This document shows, in pieces, positions 1 to 5,682 of a stretch of DNA of 5,682 bases (the first letter of the stretch is position 1; every line of letters starts with the position of its first letter). Source of the stretch: a virus (Duplodnaviria; Heunggongvirae; Uroviricota; Caudoviricetes). The notes beneath the pieces were generated by a model. That model was not told where the DNA came from. It saw only the letters and a program-made list of their open reading frames with translations, and did no database searches. Location: positions 1-5,682 of IMG/VR virus record IMGVR_UViG_2778261299_000006. One strand, given 5' to 3'. The position numbers were made by a program, and so were the translations under genes.

Positions 1-111
1 GAAGCCAGCCACGCCGACCTCGCCTGGGCGACCATGCACGCCCTGTTAAATGAGCCACTCACCGCCGGTATCAGCACTCCGCTGACATCCACCATTCTGG
101 AGTTTTACTGA
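1..111 (+). CDS. P: Terminase large (ATPase) subunit, gpP-like; 3' end only, 5' end lies outside the window
   Basis: Frame 1 is open from base 1 for 36 codons (...LAWATMHALLNEPLTAGISTPLTSTILEFY) to TGA at 109-111, which overlaps the ATG of the next gene by one base (TGATG). In P2 the late operon reads P then Q, so the gene directly upstream of the portal is expected to be the terminase. The assignment rests on synteny only; 36 residues are too few to recognise the family directly. Confidence 0.6.
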   Translation, partial: EASHADLAWATMHALLNEPLTAGISTPLTSTILEFY

Positions 112-1130
112 TGAGCAAGAAAAAAGGGAAAACACCGCAACCTGCGGCAAAAACAATGACCGCCAGCGCCCCGAAAATGGAGGCATTCACCTTTGGTGAG
201 CCGGTACCGGTACTCGACCGCCGTGACATTCTGGATTACGTCGAGTGCATCAGTAACGGCAGATGGTATGAGCCGCCGGTCAGCTTTACCGGTCTGGCAA
301 AAAGCCTGCGTGCTGCCGTGCATCACAGCTCACCGATTTACGTCAAACGCAATATTCTGGCCTCGACATTTATCCCGCATCCGTGGCTTTCCCAGCAGGA
401 TTTCAGCCGCTTTGTGCTGGATTTTCTGGTGTTCGGTAATGCGTTTCTGGAAAAGCGTTACAGCACCACCGGTAAAGTTATCAGGCTGGAAACCTCACCG
501 GCAAAATATACCCGCCGTGGTGTGGAAGAGGATGTTTACTGGTGGGTGCCGTCCTTCAACGAGCCGACAGCCTTCGCGCCCGGCTCCGTGTTTCACCTGC
601 TGGAGCCGGATATTAATCAGGAGCTGTACGGCCTGCCGGAATATCTCAGCGCCCTTAACTCTGCCTGGCTGAATGAGTCGGCCACGCTGTTCCGCCGCAA
701 GTATTACGAAAACGGCGCACATGCCGGATACATCATGTACGTCACCGATGCCGTGCAGGATCGCAACGATATCGAAATGCTTCGCGAAAACATGGTTAAG
801 TCGAAAGGCCGCAATAACTTTAAAAACCTGTTTCTCTACGCCCCGCAGGGAAAAGCCGACGGTATTAAAATTATCCCGCTCAGTGAAGTGGCGACGAAGG
901 ACGATTTTTTTAATATCAAAAAAGCCAGTGCGGAAGATCTAATGAGTGCACATCGAGTCCCCCCGCAAATGATTGGGATGATGCCTAATAATGCAGGAGG
1001 ATTTGGCGATGTAGTTAAAGCTGCTAAAGTTTTTGTCAGGAATGAGTTAGGGCACCTACAATCGCGAATGAAGGAATTGAACTCATGGATAGGTGAAACC
1101 GTTATAACATTTAACAATTACTCGTTATAA
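111..1130 (+). CDS. Q: Phage portal protein, P2 gpQ-like (339 aa)
   Basis: ATG at 111 is preceded by GGAG (99-102) at an 8-nt spacing. The 339-aa product (MSKKKGKTPQPAAKTMTASAPKMEAFTFGEPVPVLDRRDILDYVECISNGRWYEPPV...) matches my recollection of the P2 portal protein Q. GC is about 55% over the first part of the gene. Position is consistent with P2 synteny: P then Q, then cos. Confidence 0.9.
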   Translation: MSKKKGKTPQPAAKTMTASAPKMEAFTFGEPVPVLDRRDILDYVECISNGRWYEPPVSFTGLAKSLRAAVHHSSPIYVKRNILASTFIPHPWLSQQDFSRFVLDFLVFGNAFLEKRYSTTGKVIRLETSPAKYTRRGVEEDVYWWVPSFNEPTAFAPGSVFHLLEPDINQELYGLPEYLSALNSAWLNESATLFRRKYYENGAHAGYIMYVTDAVQDRNDIEMLRENMVKSKGRNNFKNLFLYAPQGKADGIKIIPLSEVATKDDFFNIKKASAEDLMSAHRVPPQMIGMMPNNAGGFGDVVKAAKVFVRNELGHLQSRMKELNSWIGETVITFNNYSL

Positions 1131-1136
1131 ACCCTG

Positions 1137-1160
1137 CAGGCTTTGGCTCGCCAAAGCCTG
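1137..1160. terminator. GC-rich inverted repeat between convergent genes; putative bidirectional terminator
   Basis: caggctttggc (1137-1147) and gccaaagcctg (1150-1160) are perfect reverse complements (about a 10-bp stem with a ctcg loop). It sits in the 35-bp gap between the stop of Q (1128-1130) and the stop of the minus-strand partner gene (1166-1168). There is no clean U-tract on the plus strand; on the minus strand it is followed by GGTTTATAA, which is only weakly T-rich. Confidence 0.45.
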
Positions 1161-1165
1161 TAAGA

Positions 1166-1783
1166 TCAAGCAGATAGGCAAAACGTTTCTGTTTGCCCCA
1201 AGTGTTCAAACACAGTAATCGATGTTACTTTTCCGGCGCTTATTTTATTAAGGAATTTCAATATTTGTTGAGGCTCCTCCATGACTGCTGTTTTCTTGAT
1301 TATAAATCCTTCAAGATTTTTCAAGCTGTATCGCTGACTTGAGTTCTCAAGAGCAGCAATCATTGCCGAACTGCGCATATCTCTATGTCCACTAGCCCTA
1401 CAAACGACAGCATAATTTAAATCAAGCTCTACAAAATTTTGCCTTGTCAACTCTGGAAGGTGTTTACATACAAAATGAAATAAAGTCGTAACACCTTCAT
1501 GTATTTTCAACCTTATATCATCCTTTTGTGAACGTCCTTCTTTAAATTCAATGAAGTACAATTTATCTTCATGTAAAAATAAAGCATCCGGTGATTTTTC
1601 TTTAAGCTCACGCCTATAAATAGGCGAGCAATTTAACACCGTATCATAGTTAAAGCCCTTCGAATCACAAATAATAAAATACCGTCCCCCGGCATCATTG
1701 TAACTTAATTCGGTTACATCAACCATTGAATCATGGTATACTTCACATAATTTTCTAAAGATAAGCTCCTCATTAGAAATCAT
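1166..1783 (-). CDS. 205-aa partner protein of the ATPase, unknown family; possible PD-(D/E)xK-type nuclease effector
   Basis: ATG at 1783-1781 is preceded by AGGAG at a 7-nt spacing (minus-strand context gaatcAGGAGtatttggATG). The start overlaps the upstream ATPase gene by 11 nt, implying translational coupling. GC is about 30%. Residues 66-82 read DALFLHEDKLYFIEFKE, i.e. a hydrophobic strand ending in D73 followed by E79-x-K81, a pattern compatible with a PD-(D/E)xK core. I see no CxxC pairs as in HNH and no ordered E...DxD TOPRIM motif. Confidence 0.75.
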   Translation of the reverse strand: MISNEELIFRKLCEVYHDSMVDVTELSYNDAGGRYFIICDSKGFNYDTVLNCSPIYRRELKEKSPDALFLHEDKLYFIEFKEGRSQKDDIRLKIHEGVTTLFHFVCKHLPELTRQNFVELDLNYAVVCRASGHRDMRSSAMIAALENSSQRYSLKNLEGFIIKKTAVMEEPQQILKFLNKISAGKVTSITVFEHLGQTETFCLSA

Positions 1784-3101
1784 CCAAATACTCCTGATTC
1801 AATTCTTTTAATGGTGTTGCCAAAAGATTAATTGCATATGCAACATTATCAGTAATATCAACAAAAGATGTAAATTCTTCCCCAGGGAATCGCTCGCTTA
1901 TATAGAACCGATTTTCAACCCCAATTTTGTCGCTAAAATGTTTAAGAGCATCAATAATATATGGGCTATGTGTTGTAATTATTATATCAACCCCCATAGA
2001 CACTAACTCACAAATAATCTCAGCATAGAAAACCTGCCACTTTGGATGTAAGTTCACCTCTGGTTCATCAATAATCAGCAACGAATTATCTACTGCTGCC
2101 CCACACTTAACAAGCATATCAAGAATACCTAAAGACTTTATTCCTGACGCAATATTACTCGATGTGACTTTATAGCCTTGCTTCTCTAGAAAAAAATCAT
2201 TCTTTTCAATATCATAAACCACCTCACCACTGAAAGCGGCATTGATTTTTTTAGATATACGAAGTGATTCATTTAAAAATGAGCCATCATCAAAAATATC
2301 CGAATGCACGAATAAATTATAAACTGAATCGCTTAGTTTTATTGATAGATCTTTCACATGCAATGGAACAGTTAGACGTCCTGATTCACCGTTACTATCA
2401 AATAAAGTTTTAGCAAAACGAACCAAATTATGAAATTGCATAATACTTGGAGAGTCAACATATGTTGCGTCGACATATCCTAAGCCATCAGTATAATCAA
2501 ATTGTGATATACCATCTTTAGTCCATTTAATATCAATTAACTGACTAACACCATCAACAACTTCCAGAGATGCTTTAACTGGATTTTGATTACCCTTCTG
2601 AATAATTTCCCCTCTAAATTCAGAGTAAAAGGCCTTACGCAGAGCGCGGTTGATAGCAGATAACTCATCATCTGGCTCAAGCATTATATCTCTGATTTTT
2701 CTTATATCAGAGAGTACAGAATCCGCCATCAACTCTGGAAGAAGACCTTCATCAATCAATTTATATAGATAACTCTCCCTCTCAGCCAAAGTTTTAGAGA
2801 TATCTATTTTTAGAGAGGCATAAAATTTTCTTGGATTGAATAACTCTCTAATTTCCGGCGTAGCAGCAATATTAATCCTCCTACGCAGATTAAAATATAT
2901 TTTCTCTACAATAGATGTAATTCTATCCTCTTTGTCTTCTTCTAAATCTTCTTGATAACGAGATATCGCCTTTACCATTGAAAACAGTATCTTCCCTACG
3001 GTACTCTTTCCCGTATCATTTTCACCAGTTATGACAGTTAATCCACCAACTGAAACATCAGCTTCCGCAATAGTTCCAAAATTATTAATTTTTATACGCA
3101 T
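1773..3101 (-). CDS. ABC-type / AAA_21-like (OLD or SMC-like) P-loop ATPase, 442 aa; first gene of a two-gene operon
   Basis: Walker A GENDTGKST (aa 26-34) is encoded at 3003-3026, verified by reverse-complement translation. A signature-like SSNIASGIKSLG lies at aa 314-325. Walker B LLIIDEPE (aa 341-348) is encoded at 2061-2081, also verified. An H-loop-like IIITTHSP lies at aa 373-380. About 300 residues separate Walker A and B, which is typical of ABC/SMC-like defence ATPases. ATG at 3101-3099. GC is about 30%, far below the flanking phage core. Confidence 0.85.
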   Translation of the reverse strand: MRIKINNFGTIAEADVSVGGLTVITGENDTGKSTVGKILFSMVKAISRYQEDLEEDKEDRITSIVEKIYFNLRRRINIAATPEIRELFNPRKFYASLKIDISKTLAERESYLYKLIDEGLLPELMADSVLSDIRKIRDIMLEPDDELSAINRALRKAFYSEFRGEIIQKGNQNPVKASLEVVDGVSQLIDIKWTKDGISQFDYTDGLGYVDATYVDSPSIMQFHNLVRFAKTLFDSNGESGRLTVPLHVKDLSIKLSDSVYNLFVHSDIFDDGSFLNESLRISKKINAAFSGEVVYDIEKNDFFLEKQGYKVTSSNIASGIKSLGILDMLVKCGAAVDNSLLIIDEPEVNLHPKWQVFYAEIICELVSMGVDIIITTHSPYIIDALKHFSDKIGVENRFYISERFPGEEFTSFVDITDNVAYAINLLATPLKELNQEYLDDF

Positions 3102-3132
3102 AAACTATCTCACTGTACGCCAGATATCCAAC

Positions 3133-3170
3133 CTTATGAATACTTTAGCATATTTCCACAAAGATGACAC
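3133..3170 (-). promoter_or_regulatory. Putative sigma70-type promoter region for the ATPase-partner operon
   Basis: On the minus strand, GTGTCA (plus coordinates 3165-3170), a 17-bp spacer, then TAAAGT (3142-3147). An alternative pairing is TTGTGG (3156-3161) with CATAAG (3133-3138). Both are only 4/6 or 3/6 matches to consensus. The region is AT-rich and lies 30-70 bp upstream of the ATG at 3101 and 25-60 bp from cos. This is a weak call. Confidence 0.25.
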
Positions 3171-3194
3171 TGGAGGCTGCAGGCCTCGCGCGCA

Positions 3195-3213
3195 GTGCTT
3201 TCCCCGCCTCGCC
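3195..3213. other. cos site: 19-nt cohesive-end sequence of P2-type phages (cosN), joined/intact form
   Basis: Plus strand 3195-3213 is gtgctttccccgcctcgcc, the exact reverse complement of GGCGAGGCGGGGAAAGCAC. I recall that sequence as the P2/P4 cohesive end, and it is at the expected place between the Q side and the A side of the genome. The orientation (GGCGAGG... reading on the minus strand toward Q) fits the P2 left end. Confidence 0.8.
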
Positions 3214-3335
3214 CGCCCGCTTCGCTGGTCACATTTAATGCAGTTGCATGAAGGCGTCAAAACCACACCGGTACTGGCAACAAGTGACCATAAAAACGGC
3301 TTTTGGCACATGCAAAACAATGCACCTAATGCACG

Positions 3336-3366
3336 CACACAAAAACGGGGAAAGTCGCTTTCCCCC
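3336..3366 (-). terminator. Rho-independent terminator downstream of the 174-aa gene
   Basis: Minus strand reads GGGGAAAG-cga-CTTTCCCC (plus coordinates 3347-3365, an 8-bp perfect GC-rich stem) followed immediately by GTTTTTGTGTG. It starts 11 nt after the TGA stop of the 174-aa gene (3379-3377). Confidence 0.7.
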
Positions 3367-3376
3367 ACAAACATTA

Positions 3377-3901
3377 TCAACGCACCGGAATGTAAGATTC
3401 AAGGTCTCTGATTACGGCTTGTTTCAGTGCTTCAGATACAGCCTCAAGTTCTGGCAATGCTGGCTTTTCACTTAAGTTCGTTTCAAATTCCCCGCTTCCT
3501 ATTACTAGCGTAAAGCCATTTCCATCACGTAGCAGTTTCAAAGGAATAATCACGTTTAACTTAGGATGAGCAACCGGTGACTTATCCACTGTAAGACCAA
3601 TAAAAAATGACAAAATCCCATCTGCATCAGGCAACAGATCGTGTAACTGAACTTTAGATTTTTCACCATCTTTAATTGCAGCGACAAAAACATAATTTTC
3701 AGTGGGGTTTTGCCCTGGATAGCCCCAGCAAGTTTGCTCAAGCTCAAGCGACCCCTCAAAGTTTTTCGCAATCAGCCCAACAATATTTTGTAAACGCTCT
3801 TTTTCCTCTCTCTGTAACCGAACGATTTCAATATACTTATCTCTTATAGTCTGAAAAGTAATCACTTTAGTCTCCTTAAACGGCTTACACAGAAACAGCA
3901 T
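3377..3901 (-). CDS. Hypothetical protein, 174 aa (162 aa if it starts at GTG 3865); orphan accessory gene at the tin/old-equivalent position
   Basis: ORF from ATG 3901-3899 to TGA 3379-3377. GGGGG lies 4 nt upstream of the ATG. An alternative start GTG at 3865-3863 is preceded by AAGGAG at a 5-nt spacing, a better-positioned SD. The gene has its own intrinsic terminator (3336-3366). GC is about 40-42%. I recognise no family motif by eye. Confidence 0.65.
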   Translation of the reverse strand: MLFLCKPFKETKVITFQTIRDKYIEIVRLQREEKERLQNIVGLIAKNFEGSLELEQTCWGYPGQNPTENYVFVAAIKDGEKSKVQLHDLLPDADGILSFFIGLTVDKSPVAHPKLNVIIPLKLLRDGNGFTLVIGSGEFETNLSEKPALPELEAVSEALKQAVIRDLESYIPVR

Positions 3902-3929
3902 TTAACCCCCTGATAATATTTCTTTCAAT
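3900..3929 (-). promoter_or_regulatory. Putative promoter for the 174-aa gene
   Basis: On the minus strand, TTGAAA (plus coordinates 3924-3929), an 18-bp spacer, then TTAAAT (3900-3905). The -10 overlaps the ATG at 3901, so this promoter would favour the GTG 3865 start with its AAGGAG SD. An alternative -10, TATTAT (3913-3918), has a poor -35. Low confidence. Confidence 0.25.
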
Positions 3930-4213
3930 AATTTTCCTAACGCCTCGCTACGCTCGTTGTTCAACCCCGTCAGCCCTGAAAACAAGTTTCACGACTGGCG
4001 GCGTTCTCTATCGTCTGCGTGGTGGTGACGTAACTCTTGATTGACCGATATGGTTAAACCGCCCGTCATTATCCCGGACTATTTCGGCACACCCGACCAG
4101 CTCATCGGGCGTCAGATTTTCGTTGACCATAATCCGCTGTAAACGCTGAACAATAGCCATCAGCTTGATATTTTTAGTTTTATGGTGCGGTATCTCGCCT
4201 GGTATTCTGTGCA

Positions 4214-4666
4214 TTATCCAAGCCACCCGTTTTGCTGTGCACGCTCCATCTGTTCATCTGAATAGTTCCATGCTCCATCCGTGGCAACCATTGCCCCGCC
4301 AGACATCCCTGTCTCTGGTTCATACATAACAGCAAGGCCGAGCTGATGCATAATTTCATGATTAATTCTGAATACCAGACCACGCTCACTAAGTTCTTTC
4401 CAGTTCACAATCTCATATGCGCATGTATTAAGCAGATCAATACTTAGCAAGACATAATCTTCCAGCCAGTCTGACAGGTCAGTAACATCTGTTATCCGGG
4501 CTTCAACCTTTCGCCCCGTGTACACACCCTGCACCCATTCATGCAAAATCAACGTGTCCCCGCGCTCATAATTACGGTCATTTTTCCGAAACTCTGCGCG
4601 TTTCTTTCCTTCCAGCACAAGGTCGAAATATTTTGCGTGCAGCTTTACCTCGTGAATTTTTGCCAT
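4214..4666 (-). CDS. ASCH / DUF3850-like domain protein (orf91-position gene) with a C-terminal extension carrying HEIMH; 150 aa
   Basis: True start is taken as ATG 4666-4664 (MAKIHEVKLHAKYFDLVLEGKKRAEFRKNDRNYERGDTLILHEW...), not the upstream GTG at 4702 reported in the ORF track. GGAG lies 8 nt upstream. The ATG overlaps the TAA stop of gene A by one base (TAATG). The N-terminal ~75 aa resemble the ASCH-like DUF3850 pattern as I recall it. The C-terminal half contains INHEIMHQLGL...YEPE. The position immediately downstream of A matches P2 orf91. Confidence 0.75.
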   Translation of the reverse strand: MAKIHEVKLHAKYFDLVLEGKKRAEFRKNDRNYERGDTLILHEWVQGVYTGRKVEARITDVTDLSDWLEDYVLLSIDLLNTCAYEIVNWKELSERGLVFRINHEIMHQLGLAVMYEPETGMSGGAMVATDGAWNYSDEQMERAQQNGWLG

Positions 4667-5682
4667 TATGTCCACTCCATTACTGTTGAGAATCCCGGCC
4701 ACTCATCAGCGACCGGATACGTGAATTTTTTCCCGTCATAATTTACGGTCGCGCCACGCGCCAGCGCCTCAAGCTCCCATCGCTGCGGCCTGATACCGTT
4801 CTGAGCAAGGTCAACGCGGATACGGGTAATTTGCATTCTTTCCGACCGGGTCAGTCTGACCGATGGTGCAATTTCATGTGGTTTTAACGGGCTTCCGTTT
4901 CTTTGCTGACGGTTTGGCGTTCTCAGGTCGTGTTTTAATGCGCCCCTGAGCGCCCTCACGACCTCCGGTTCATTCCATTCAATAACACCGCCATCAACCA
5001 GATTAAGCACTGCTGCGGCGTGCTCAGAAGGTGTGGGAACCAGTAACGAAGTATCACCACCGGAGAGCTTTCCACAGTTATTGACAGGACTCCGAGGCGC
5101 GGCGATGCCGCTTTTTAAAGTCAAAGGCTCAACGACCGGCACTTTCGGCACAATGCGCCAGTCCGTGGTTCTGGTGATATGAATATGACGCGCGCCGAGA
5201 TGCGGCGCGTAAATGCCGACCACTCTCTCGACTTCTTCCTCGTACTCGTTAACGTCATCCGACGGGCTACGGGCGACCCTGACAGTCTGACAATCGCGCG
5301 GGACATTTGCCCCGCCCTGCGCGCTGATATACAACGCAAAATCACCACTGTCTGCGGCGGCGCGTGCAGCCTCGACGCGTTCGTCAAACTCATCAGCAAT
5401 GCTGACGCCGCGAGGCAATTTGCGTAGTTCACGGTAAGCACCCATTGTCGGCAGGCCAACCGTTTTAAATTGCGGAATGCGCCACGTTGACGCCCATGCG
5501 GTAACAGCCGCGGCAGTATCTTTCAGCGGTCTGCCGGTATCGTTATCGAGCTGCCCATCCAGTGCATAGCCGTCGATATTTTTTGAGATGTATTTCGCGA
5601 TATACCCCGCAGCACCGCCCCGGTTAAGGTGTTTTGCCTGAAAACGGTTTCGCGCGGCTCCTCTTTCGTCACCATCCTCTTT
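4666..5682 (-). CDS. A: Rolling-circle replication initiator, P2 gpA-like; C-terminal 338 codons, 5' end outside the window
   Basis: I translated the minus-strand frame by hand from 5682 down to TAA at 4668-4666 and found no stop, so the gene enters from beyond the window edge. It contains GYIAKYISKNIDGY (Tyr codons at 5604-5602 and 5592-5590), the Y-x-x-K-Y two-tyrosine motif of phiX174/P2-type RCR initiators. The second Tyr is 308 residues from the C-terminus, which fits the P2 A active-site position as I remember it. GC is about 55%. Confidence 0.9.
   Translation of the reverse strand, partial: KEDGDERGAARNRFQAKHLNRGGAAGYIAKYISKNIDGYALDGQLDNDTGRPLKDTAAAVTAWASTWRIPQFKTVGLPTMGAYRELRKLPRGVSIADEFDERVEAARAAADSGDFALYISAQGGANVPRDCQTVRVARSPSDDVNEYEEEVERVVGIYAPHLGARHIHITRTTDWRIVPKVPVVEPLTLKSGIAAPRSPVNNCGKLSGGDTSLLVPTPSEHAAAVLNLVDGGVIEWNEPEVVRALRGALKHDLRTPNRQQRNGSPLKPHEIAPSVRLTRSERMQITRIRVDLAQNGIRPQRWELEALARGATVNYDGKKFTYPVADEWPGFSTVMEWT

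Follow-up and report, generated by a model that had tools for sequence, protein, structure and literature searches.

Gene content and layout of the cos region

The window, that is, the whole stretch of 5,682 nucleotides that was analysed, carries in the reverse direction to the P2 map the end of P, Q, a hairpin, genes for a predicted nuclease and an ATPase, cos, a terminator, a gene for a 162- or 174-aa protein, a 68-aa ORF, an Orf91-like gene and A with its ori (Table 1). An earlier, sequence-only reading had described the joined cos region of a P2-like phage with accessory loci on both sides of cos, and all of the elements that it named were found in their places. The gene order and orientation that it gave agree with the circularised P2 map in the NC_001895 annotation, A-orf91-(tin-old)-cos-Q-P, read in reverse. 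Its gene list was right as far as it went, but omitted the 68-aa ORF (72 aa when started at GTG 4226).

Table 1. Positions, strand and supporting evidence for the features of the window.
Feature	Position	Strand	Evidence
gpP (terminase large subunit) 3' end, last 36 codons and stop	1..111	+	36/36 aa identical to P2 gpP residues 555-590
gpQ portal protein, 339 aa	111..1130	+	91% identical to P2 gpQ; PF04860, phrog_68 1e-172, TIGR01540
Perfect 12-bp hairpin between convergent Q and cargo genes	1135..1162	.	folding energy -19.7 kcal/mol on plus strand, -21.4 on minus strand
205-aa predicted PD-(D/E)xK nuclease	1166..1783	-	invariant motif and predicted fold
442-aa ABC-type (AAA_15/AAA_21) ATPase	1773..3101	-	PF13304 5e-19, PF13175 3e-18
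cos core	3188..3242	.	55-bp block 89% identical to P2; exact 19-mer
Intrinsic terminator, GGGGAAAGCGACTTTCCCC then T-run	3347..3365	-	terminator scan and fold
A-side single-gene cargo, 174 aa, or 162 aa from GTG 3865	3377..3901	-	SD AAGGAG before GTG 3865
68-aa ORF (72 aa from GTG 4226)	4008..4214	-	phrog_11386 3e-37; annotated in RefSeq relatives
Orf91-like protein, 150 aa	4214..4666	-	PF12961 8e-18, PF24187 2e-14, PF04266 2e-10
gpA replication endonuclease, C-terminal 338 aa, runs off window	4666..5682	-	97% identical to P2 gpA residues 424-761; PF05840, phrog_91

DNA similarity between the window and P2 was confined to 1-931, 3188-3242 and 4446-5682, with 96-98% identity over the first and last of these segments, and therefore tin and old have no counterpart in the window. 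The replacement of tin and old and the additional cargo on the Q side had both been proposed earlier and were borne out: the window has 2.06 kb of cargo in the cos-Q interval, whereas P2 has only 167 bp there, containing the tQ terminator. The A-side cargo runs in the same direction as A, while old and tin of P2 run the opposite way. The contrast in GC content that had been noted was also seen, at 0.52-0.59 in the core versus 0.31-0.43 in the cargo (0.31-0.37 at 1200-3000 and 0.39-0.43 at 3450-3900).

Comparison with P2 upheld the identities proposed for the 339-aa and 338-aa proteins as gpQ and gpA, and the P2 ori nick region lies inside the gpA gene at 5073-5113, where 41 of 41 nt around the annotated P2 nick site are identical and position 5093 is the nick-equivalent base. 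The stop codon of gpP overlaps the start codon of Q. In gpQ, residues 1-274 are nearly identical to P2, but the last ~65 codons of the gene (~932-1130) belong to the swapped module; identity to P2 at the DNA level ends at 931, and the C-terminal ~65 aa are a diverged allele, ~55-60% identical there. This allele recurs (99% identical) in only one other locus, L018, which bears the same cargo. The Orf91-like gene was likewise present as predicted, but its product needs a correction. An N-terminal DUF3850/ASCH domain is common to it and P2 Orf91, with 72 of the first 74 aa identical (97%), and the proteins diverge afterwards, the window's C-terminal allele adding a DUF7415 domain that P2 Orf91 lacks. 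The start of the 68-aa ORF overlaps the stop of the Orf91-like gene by 1 nt, which suggests that the two may be translationally coupled, and the ORF accompanies the 150-aa Orf91-like gene in 6 IMG/VR loci.

The 19-mer that had been singled out at 3195-3213 reads GTGCTTTCCCCGCCTCGCC and is the exact reverse complement of the P2 cosL/cosR cohesive end, GGCGAGGCGGGGAAAGCAC; an exact 19-mer would be expected by chance ~4e-8 times in 5.7 kb. Across 120 IMG/VR loci conservation extends beyond the cohesive end for 7 bp (TGCGCGC) on the Q side and for ~30-35 bp on the A side, and the window bears a rare variant in its A-side flank. Two further structures border the cargo. The intrinsic terminator lies 12 nt downstream of the 162/174-aa gene, ahead of cos. 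The hairpin beyond Q has no U-run and is probably a bidirectional terminator or an RNA-stabilising element that stands in place of P2 tQ.

Cargo genes on either side of cos

On the Q side, the ATPase gene and the 205-aa gene overlap by 11 nt, and they are still both adjacent and overlapping where they occur in unrelated mobile contexts, one an integrase island and the other a cassette array of V. cholerae. Intact Walker A (G26-S33), Walker B (L341-E346) and H-loop (T376-S379) motifs are present in the ATPase. Among PADLOC models it matched HEC-02A best (1.1e-33), followed by PD-T4-4_A (6e-31), AriA (8.5e-21), PtuA and Old, and sequence matches in the PDB were to an OLD-family nuclease, AriA and PtuA. 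The best stretch of the HEC-02A match covers residues 273-396 only, a region that was matched by 134 ATPase models.

The 205-aa protein matched no Pfam family at the thresholds used, NERD being absent from every member of its family, and no PADLOC effector model even at E<=10, so that PADLOC would call no system here. Residues P65 D66 and E79 F80 K81 are invariant in 45 sequences of the family, and in the model they fall on strands E67-71 and E74-81, within a predicted alpha/beta fold of the restriction-endonuclease-like type. We therefore describe the protein as a predicted nuclease of the PD-(D/E)xK superfamily; the PD...ExK motif and the predicted fold are new in this analysis.

With this motif and fold, and with no Pfam or PADLOC family for the smaller protein, the pair resembles HEC-02 and PD-T4-4, each an ATPase sensor with a nuclease effector, and is a member of neither. 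HEC-02 consists of an ABC ATPase (HEC-02A) and a NERD nuclease (HEC-02B), and its defence needs both genes (Payne et al., 10.1101/2024.01.29.577857). The window's pair has the same two-gene composition of ABC ATPase and PD-(D/E)xK-superfamily nuclease, but neither the HEC-02B models nor NERD matched the 205-aa effector, and most of the similarity of the ATPase to HEC-02A falls in the conserved C-terminal third; without a NERD-type HEC-02B partner, the pair was not assigned to HEC-02. PD-T4-4 is a PD-(D/E)xK-plus-NTPase system (10.1101/2025.07.10.664194) and shares the nuclease-NTPase class. It was, however, discovered in an ICE-like element (Vassallo et al. 2022) rather than in the P2 hotspot, and although its A model matched the ATPase, PD-T4-4_B was unmatched, which excluded membership.

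PARIS (AriA/AriB), Septu (PtuA/PtuB) and P2 Old also have an ABC-type ATPase with the AAA_15/AAA_21 signature and the same sensor-plus-nuclease logic, and PARIS and Old reside in the cos hotspots of P4 and P2, respectively. Their effectors are Toprim/DUF4435 (AriB, Old) or HNH (PtuB), whereas the window's effector is a separate predicted PD-(D/E)xK protein; Pfam and PADLOC profiles found no Toprim, DUF4435 or HNH domain in the window. PARIS was rejected on these grounds, as the AriA matches were partial and the window has no DUF4435/Toprim protein. The OLD family was also rejected: the Old model covers only residues 337-385 of the ATPase, the 442 aa contain no Toprim, and the DNA shows no similarity to P2 old.

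A scan for consensus promoters between cos and the ATPase start found none. A weak candidate extended -10 element, TGcTAAAGT, lies at ~3150-3142 in the 94 bp between cos and the ATPase ATG.

On the A side, the ORF that had been listed as a 174-aa gene is present, but translation may start at GTG 3865 to give 162 aa, the form annotated in one RefSeq genome. The product is a predicted non-enzymatic alpha/beta sandwich for which homologue and fold searches gave no informative match. The gene forms a self-contained single-gene cassette with its own terminator, and its product is a small, probably protein-binding module that may act in defence, anti-defence or regulation.

Proposed function of the Q-side pair

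An anti-phage role is reasonably likely for the Q-side pair, as a system of the ABC-ATPase-plus-nuclease class. In this model the 442-aa ATPase would be both sensor and keeper, and the 205-aa PD-(D/E)xK nuclease, translationally coupled to it, would be the effector. A phage-derived trigger might then lead the nuclease to cut nucleic acid, with either direct interference or abortive infection as the outcome, in the manner of HEC-02, PD-T4-4, PARIS and Septu. Expression would come from the prophage, through a promoter within the 94 bp between cos and the ATG.

The cargo could instead serve purposes other than defence: the pair might be a selfish addiction or toxin-antitoxin-like module or act in phage DNA metabolism, and the 162/174-aa protein might be an anti-defence or regulatory factor in the phage's own infection. 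This appears rather unlikely, as the pairs of ABC ATPase and nuclease tested so far are defence systems, this pair travels among defence-rich contexts, and it is transcribed against Q and lies outside any phage replication or morphogenesis operon. A retron (IV), Avs5 and DRT2 also occupy the same cos-Q slot elsewhere. This occupancy, together with published work on the same locus (PMC9122126, PMC9519451 and PMC13586616), supports the earlier suggestion that the cargo genes are defence candidates, and an anti-phage role of the pair is the reading that we prefer.

Module exchange and the gpA-gpQ hotspot

The modules occur apart from each other in E. coli chromosomes. H26 has the same Q-side pair and a different A side, sharing window positions 1-3249 and 4688-5682; H34 has the same A side with different Q-side cargo, sharing 1-940 and 3188-5682. 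As judged from these alignments, the Q-side and A-side modules are shown to move independently. The Q-side module extends over ~941-3187, starting within the 3' part of Q and ending 7 bp short of the cohesive-end sequence. The A-side variable segment covers ~3250-4687 against one relative; in the comparison with P2 its boundary falls at ~4446, within the Orf91-like gene. In no complete E. coli genome was 80% or more of the window present. The packaging-essential cos core (~55 bp) and the flanking core genes stay fixed while the low-GC cassettes on each side are swapped among related phages. Alignment break-points point to homologous recombination anchored in Q, cos and A/orf91 as the likely route of exchange.

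We regard the window as very probably the cos region of a P2-like (Peduovirus) E. coli phage in its covalently joined state, which occurs in the prophage or the circular replicative form, and as one case of the gpA-gpQ cos-proximal hotspot that is already known. It is tied to P2 by the identical 19-nt cohesive end and by the way in which A (with ori), orf91, cos, Q and P are ordered and oriented. The joined cos might be an artefact, from a linear virion genome circularised by the assembler or from a chimeric contig, in which case the adjacency across cos would not be biological. Linear records beginning at cos are common among phages, which splits the matches in phage collections at that point, and the closest match, at 99.7%, is to a separate contig of 3.8 kb that bears a plasmid label. 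Yet P2 integrates at attP, far from cos, which leaves cos naturally joined in prophages, and the closed chromosomes H26 and H34 each have the joined arrangement across cos with one of the modules. The same five-gene arrangement is also given for NZ_QOET01000010 in Table S5A of PMC9122126. An artefact is therefore very improbable.

Least credible of all, to the point of being negligible, is that the window comes from a P4-like satellite, or from some other hijacker that shares cos, and not from a P2-like helper. This reading is refuted by the 91-100% identity to P2 of the gpP, gpQ, gpA and ori found here, since a P4-like satellite would have none of these three proteins. What favours it is that P4 shares the cos core with P2 and has a defence hotspot adjoining cos, that P4 hotspot inserts start at the same TGCGCG(C) junction in the cloned sequences of PMC9122126 Table S2A, and that 22 of the 120 IMG/VR loci with this cos 25-mer have neither Q nor A nearby; P4 is described in PMC9122126 as having no capsid and tail genes.

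The architecture of a joined P2-like cos region is read correctly and is already published. The gpA-gpQ cos-proximal defence hotspot was described by Rousset et al. 2022 (PMC9122126), and also by Vassallo et al. 2022 (PMC9519451) and in PMC13586616, making the cos region a known site where P2-like phages carry swappable anti-phage genes. The pair corresponds to system #73 'AAA_15/AAA_21', with 57 occurrences in Table S5B of PMC9122126, and is not among the cloned systems in Tables S2A and S2B of that paper. The window fits the same locus definition, with variable low-GC genes between gpA and gpQ. In the accessible text of the three papers, however, A-Q is treated as one hotspot, undivided at cos.

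The occupancy of the cos-Q gap and the nature of its inserts are new in this analysis. The gap held cargo in only 7 of 94 sampled P2-like cos loci, and in the 7 occupied loci the portal C-terminus often varied along with the cargo. Inserts other than the present pair were the retron IV with 2TM, Avs5, DRT2, PDC-S02 and an OLD/AriA-like ATPase. The pair thus sits on the less commonly occupied side of cos.

A P2-like joined cos region at a published hotspot

The sequence-only reading had described a P2-like joined cos region, with core genes at either end, low-GC cargo between them and the tin and old genes replaced. The observed layout is confirmed: the ORF listing and base composition place a low-GC interior between window ends with a GC content of 0.52-0.59, and the 339-aa and C-terminal 338-aa proteins, read as P2 Q and A, do closely match their P2 counterparts, as does gpP. 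The N-terminal part of the Orf91-like protein is identical to P2 Orf91 at 72 of 74 residues. P2 (NC_001895) has a 19-nt sequence that carries the annotations cosL and cosR, and the 19-mer at 3195-3213, expected in P2-family cos sites, matches its reverse complement base for base. Because a local BLASTN comparison with the joined ends of P2 aligned only window positions 1-931, 3188-3242 and 4446-5682, tin and old are absent and only 55 bp are common to the two around cos. The P2 ori nick region, which lies inside A, is matched at 41 of 41 nt (5073-5113, nick-equivalent base 5093), so the phage ori also falls within the window. A P4-satellite origin is ruled out by the presence of gpP, gpQ and gpA, and an assembly artefact by closed chromosomes that carry each module across the joined cos. 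The first interpretation, a P2-like cos region whose cargo genes are candidates for defence, is supported. A 68-aa ORF on the A side had been overlooked.

Features of the window, with positions, strands and principal matches
Feature	Position	Strand	Remarks
gpP C-terminus (ORF end)	1-111	+	36/36 aa identical to P2
gpQ portal, 339 aa	111-1130	+	310/339 aa identical to P2
Perfect 12-bp hairpin	1135-1162	either	between convergent Q and cargo genes; about -20 kcal/mol
205-aa ORF	1166-1783	-	low-GC interior
442-aa ORF (ATPase)	1773-3101	-	low-GC interior
ATPase motifs (residues)			Walker A G26-S33; Walker B L341-E346; H-loop T376-S379
Intrinsic terminator, canonical	3365-3347	-	closes 162/174-aa gene ahead of cos
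174-aa ORF	3377-3901	-	low-GC interior
68-aa ORF (72 aa from upstream GTG)	4008-4214 (4226)	-	phrog_11386; after Orf91-like gene
Orf91-like protein, 150 aa	4214-4666	-	DUF3850/ASCH + DUF7415
gpA, runs off window	4666-5682	-	328/338 aa identical to P2 gpA residues 424-761

This architecture is already known, both as a textbook P2 landmark and as a hotspot published in 2022, since the locus is described by Rousset et al. 2022, Vassallo et al. 2022 and a 2026 NAR study. In Rousset et al., the gpA-gpQ locus adjoining cos is a defence hotspot with 1,650 arrangements across 18,150 E. coli loci; Table S5A contains the window's five-gene arrangement, and in Table S5B the Q-side pair appears as system #73, labelled 'AAA_15/AAA_21', which occurs 57 times and whose protein sequences are nearly identical (PMC9122126). 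The pair is absent from that paper's tables of cloned systems (PMC9122126). The other two studies describe the same hotspot (PMC9519451; PMC13586616). The main use of the present finding is as context, as grounds for regarding the low-GC genes as candidates for defence. Its residual value lies in a proposed nuclease assignment for system #73, a minority sub-hotspot on the Q side and the near-orphan 162/174-aa protein of the A side.

The Q-side ATPase and its 205-aa partner

The 442-aa protein is an ABC-type ATPase, with matches to AAA_21 (5e-19) and AAA_15 (3e-18). Its best PADLOC matches were HEC-02A (1e-33) and PD-T4-4_A (6e-31), followed by AriA, PtuA and Old, and the PDB sequence search returned an OLD-family nuclease, AriA and PtuA. 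The gene overlaps that of the 205-aa protein by 11 nt. Searches with the 205-aa protein found nothing among PADLOC effector models at E<=10 and nothing above threshold in Pfam or NCBIfam, and neither a PDB sequence search nor a profile search of its family gave a credible hit. The protein has 64 homologues, all of about 200 aa, from Enterobacterales, Vibrio, Aeromonas, Pseudomonas and similar hosts, and none of these carries a Pfam domain. Across the family alignment P65 D66 and E79 F80 K81 are invariant and R91, K93, H95 and E96 are conserved; the AlphaFold2 model (pLDDT 86, pTM 0.83) places the motif residues on adjacent strands. In six family members the motif region gave sub-threshold matches to the bunyaviral cap-snatching endonuclease domain, and no member matched NERD. 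The 205-aa protein may represent a new family of PD-(D/E)xK nucleases, about 200 aa long and without a Pfam or PADLOC model, and this family may be restricted to gammaproteobacterial mobile elements.

Two validated systems offer a comparison. HEC-02 combines an ABC ATPase with a NERD nuclease, and both genes are needed (10.1101/2024.01.29.577857); PD-T4-4 combines a PD-(D/E)xK protein with a P-loop NTPase (10.1101/2025.07.10.664194). The pair resembles both in its proposed working, an ATPase with a nuclease, yet belongs to neither, because the effector models of both were unmatched. Given the motifs, the retained adjacency of the two genes and the precedent of HEC-02 and PD-T4-4, the ATPase probably senses a phage cue and would then license the 205-aa nuclease. 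This gives the catalogued system #73 a concrete assignment, an ABC ATPase with a predicted new PD-(D/E)xK family whose catalytic residues are named.

Homologues of the pair are also found elsewhere. At these sites (L008 1980-3861 and L006 4731-6594) the two genes are adjacent, with a 14-nt overlap. One setting is a superintegron-like array of small cassettes of Vibrio cholerae; the other is an island of a gammaproteobacterial MAG, where the pair comes immediately downstream of a tyrosine integrase.

Around the Q-side cargo, the perfect hairpin stands where P2 has tQ; it was missed by the terminator scan because it lacks a clear U-run. No promoter emerged from a consensus scan of the stretch from cos to the start of the ATPase gene, and an extended -10 candidate for the cargo operon comes from reading the sequence alone. 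An Rfam scan of the entire window at E<=1 returned no family. A short inverted repeat, GAGGC-TGCAG-GCCTC, occupies 3173-3187, next to the TGCGCGC junction of cos on the upstream side of the ATPase gene. L018 and L001 conserve it in part, and it may be an operator, a junction element or nothing.

Occupancy and exchange on the two sides of cos

IMG/VR was scanned with a cos 25-mer and Q and A were then located by tblastn, giving a sample of at least 120 loci in which duplicates were retained; owing to the 25-mer pattern, all of them necessarily agree in the first 6 bp that follow the 19-mer. Among the matches listed, Q adjoined cos in 94 loci, 87 with a P2-like short gap and 7 with inserts of 0.9-3.2 kb, and the A-side gap was variable in all loci (745 to 5666 bp). 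Low GC (0.34-0.37) was common to all the Q-side inserts listed, most of which are transcribed in the direction from cos to Q. Within the same matches, the cos-Q intervals of L104, L099, L031, L027, L036 and L058 carry a retron type IV with a 2TM effector, Avs5, DRT2 (with a TM protein), a candidate PDC-S02 and two cassettes without a PADLOC match, one encoding a 535-aa and one a 156-aa protein. The pair seen in the window recurred, among these matches, only in L018 and in the truncated locus L048.

No single place holding at least 80% of the window was found in phage records or in 5,426 complete E. coli genomes. Two classes of E. coli prophage each share parts of it. One (H26) has window positions 1-3249 and 4688-5682 in common and so keeps the Q-side pair beside another A side; the other (H34) has 1-940 and 3188-5682 in common, with the same A side and, as Q-side cargo, a 645-aa OLD/AriA-like ATPase. 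Because each class keeps one side, the two sides of cos are modules independent of each other. That on the Q side covers about 941-3187, including the last ~65 portal codons and stopping 7 bp from the cohesive-end sequence. These ~65 residues (932-1130, codons ~275-339) form a diverged allele that shares about 55-60% identity with P2. Among the matches listed, the window's allele has a 99% match in L018 only, which carries the same Q-side cargo, and most other insert-bearing cos-Q loci likewise have non-standard portal C-termini. Since the window's portal allele tracks its cargo and other insert loci have unusual C-termini, the pattern points to recombination junctions within the Q gene.

The P2 A-Q hotspot may consist of two sub-hotspots split by cos, in which the rarely occupied cos-Q slot may be exchanged together with the portal C-terminal ~65 residues. 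Portal-side cargo appears to be a minority state, with a portal C-terminus often differing from the standard allele, and, if the exchange is joint, the turnover of defence cassettes would be tied to variation in a structural protein. The combined proposal, that system #73 is a functional anti-phage system whose effector is a new PD-(D/E)xK family under an ABC ATPase, and that the A-Q hotspot is split by cos with the cos-Q slot exchanged along with the portal C-terminus, stands in our judgement at even chances.

Older P2 literature provides a lead to Xer recombination. A dif/cer-like Xer site at the module junctions was rejected, with no match at three or fewer mismatches; with 6-8-nt spacers the best candidate had 6 mismatches, which does not improve on shuffled sequence. 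A repeat search in the window gave short two-copy matches typical of chance and no att-like or IS-like repeats flanking the cargo. IS21-family (ISEc12) or IS5-family insertions break up the A-Q region in some E. coli genomes (H39, H41, H42).

A-side genes and the cos flank

The start of the 68-aa ORF overlaps the stop of the Orf91-like gene by 1 nt, and the overlap between A and the Orf91-like gene is of the same size. Because of these overlaps, all three look like a single translationally coupled string. P2 Orf91 has only DUF3850/ASCH, whereas the window's protein has DUF7415 in addition; the 68/72-aa ORF and the DUF7415-bearing gene occur together in 6 of 120 IMG/VR loci among the matches listed.

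For the last A-side gene, an internal GTG at 3865, with a canonical Shine-Dalgarno sequence AAGGAG (3872-3877) 6 nt upstream, would give a 162-aa instead of a 174-aa product. RefSeq annotates both forms, and the first 10 residues are of low confidence in the structure model. Neither the 174-aa nor the 72-aa protein matched PADLOC at E<=10 or any Pfam or NCBIfam family above threshold, and a PDB sequence search with the former gave nothing credible. The sole family match of the 162/174-aa protein is phrog_5091. A word-based search gave three homologues, and 11 credible relatives were found among 1.84 billion cluster representatives, where the top match was a spurious repeat protein. An 87% homologue lies between gpA and the portal in another P2-like prophage with different neighbours, and the gene was found in 0 of 120 IMG/VR cos loci among the matches listed. 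It is a hotspot-specific single-gene cassette, and its product a very rare near-orphan at the hotspot, without recognisable relatives. A protein-binding role is tentatively favoured, as a defence sensor or decoy, or in anti-defence.

Read on the P2-map strand, the A-side cos flank at 3224-3233 is TGTGACCAGC; in other cos sites of the P2/P4 type the segment is ACCGCCCCAT/G, a consensus that pairs with GGGCGG beside the cohesive end. The variant occurred in 0 of 120 IMG/VR cos loci among the matches listed, and in only two E. coli relatives, L002 and L003 (one difference).
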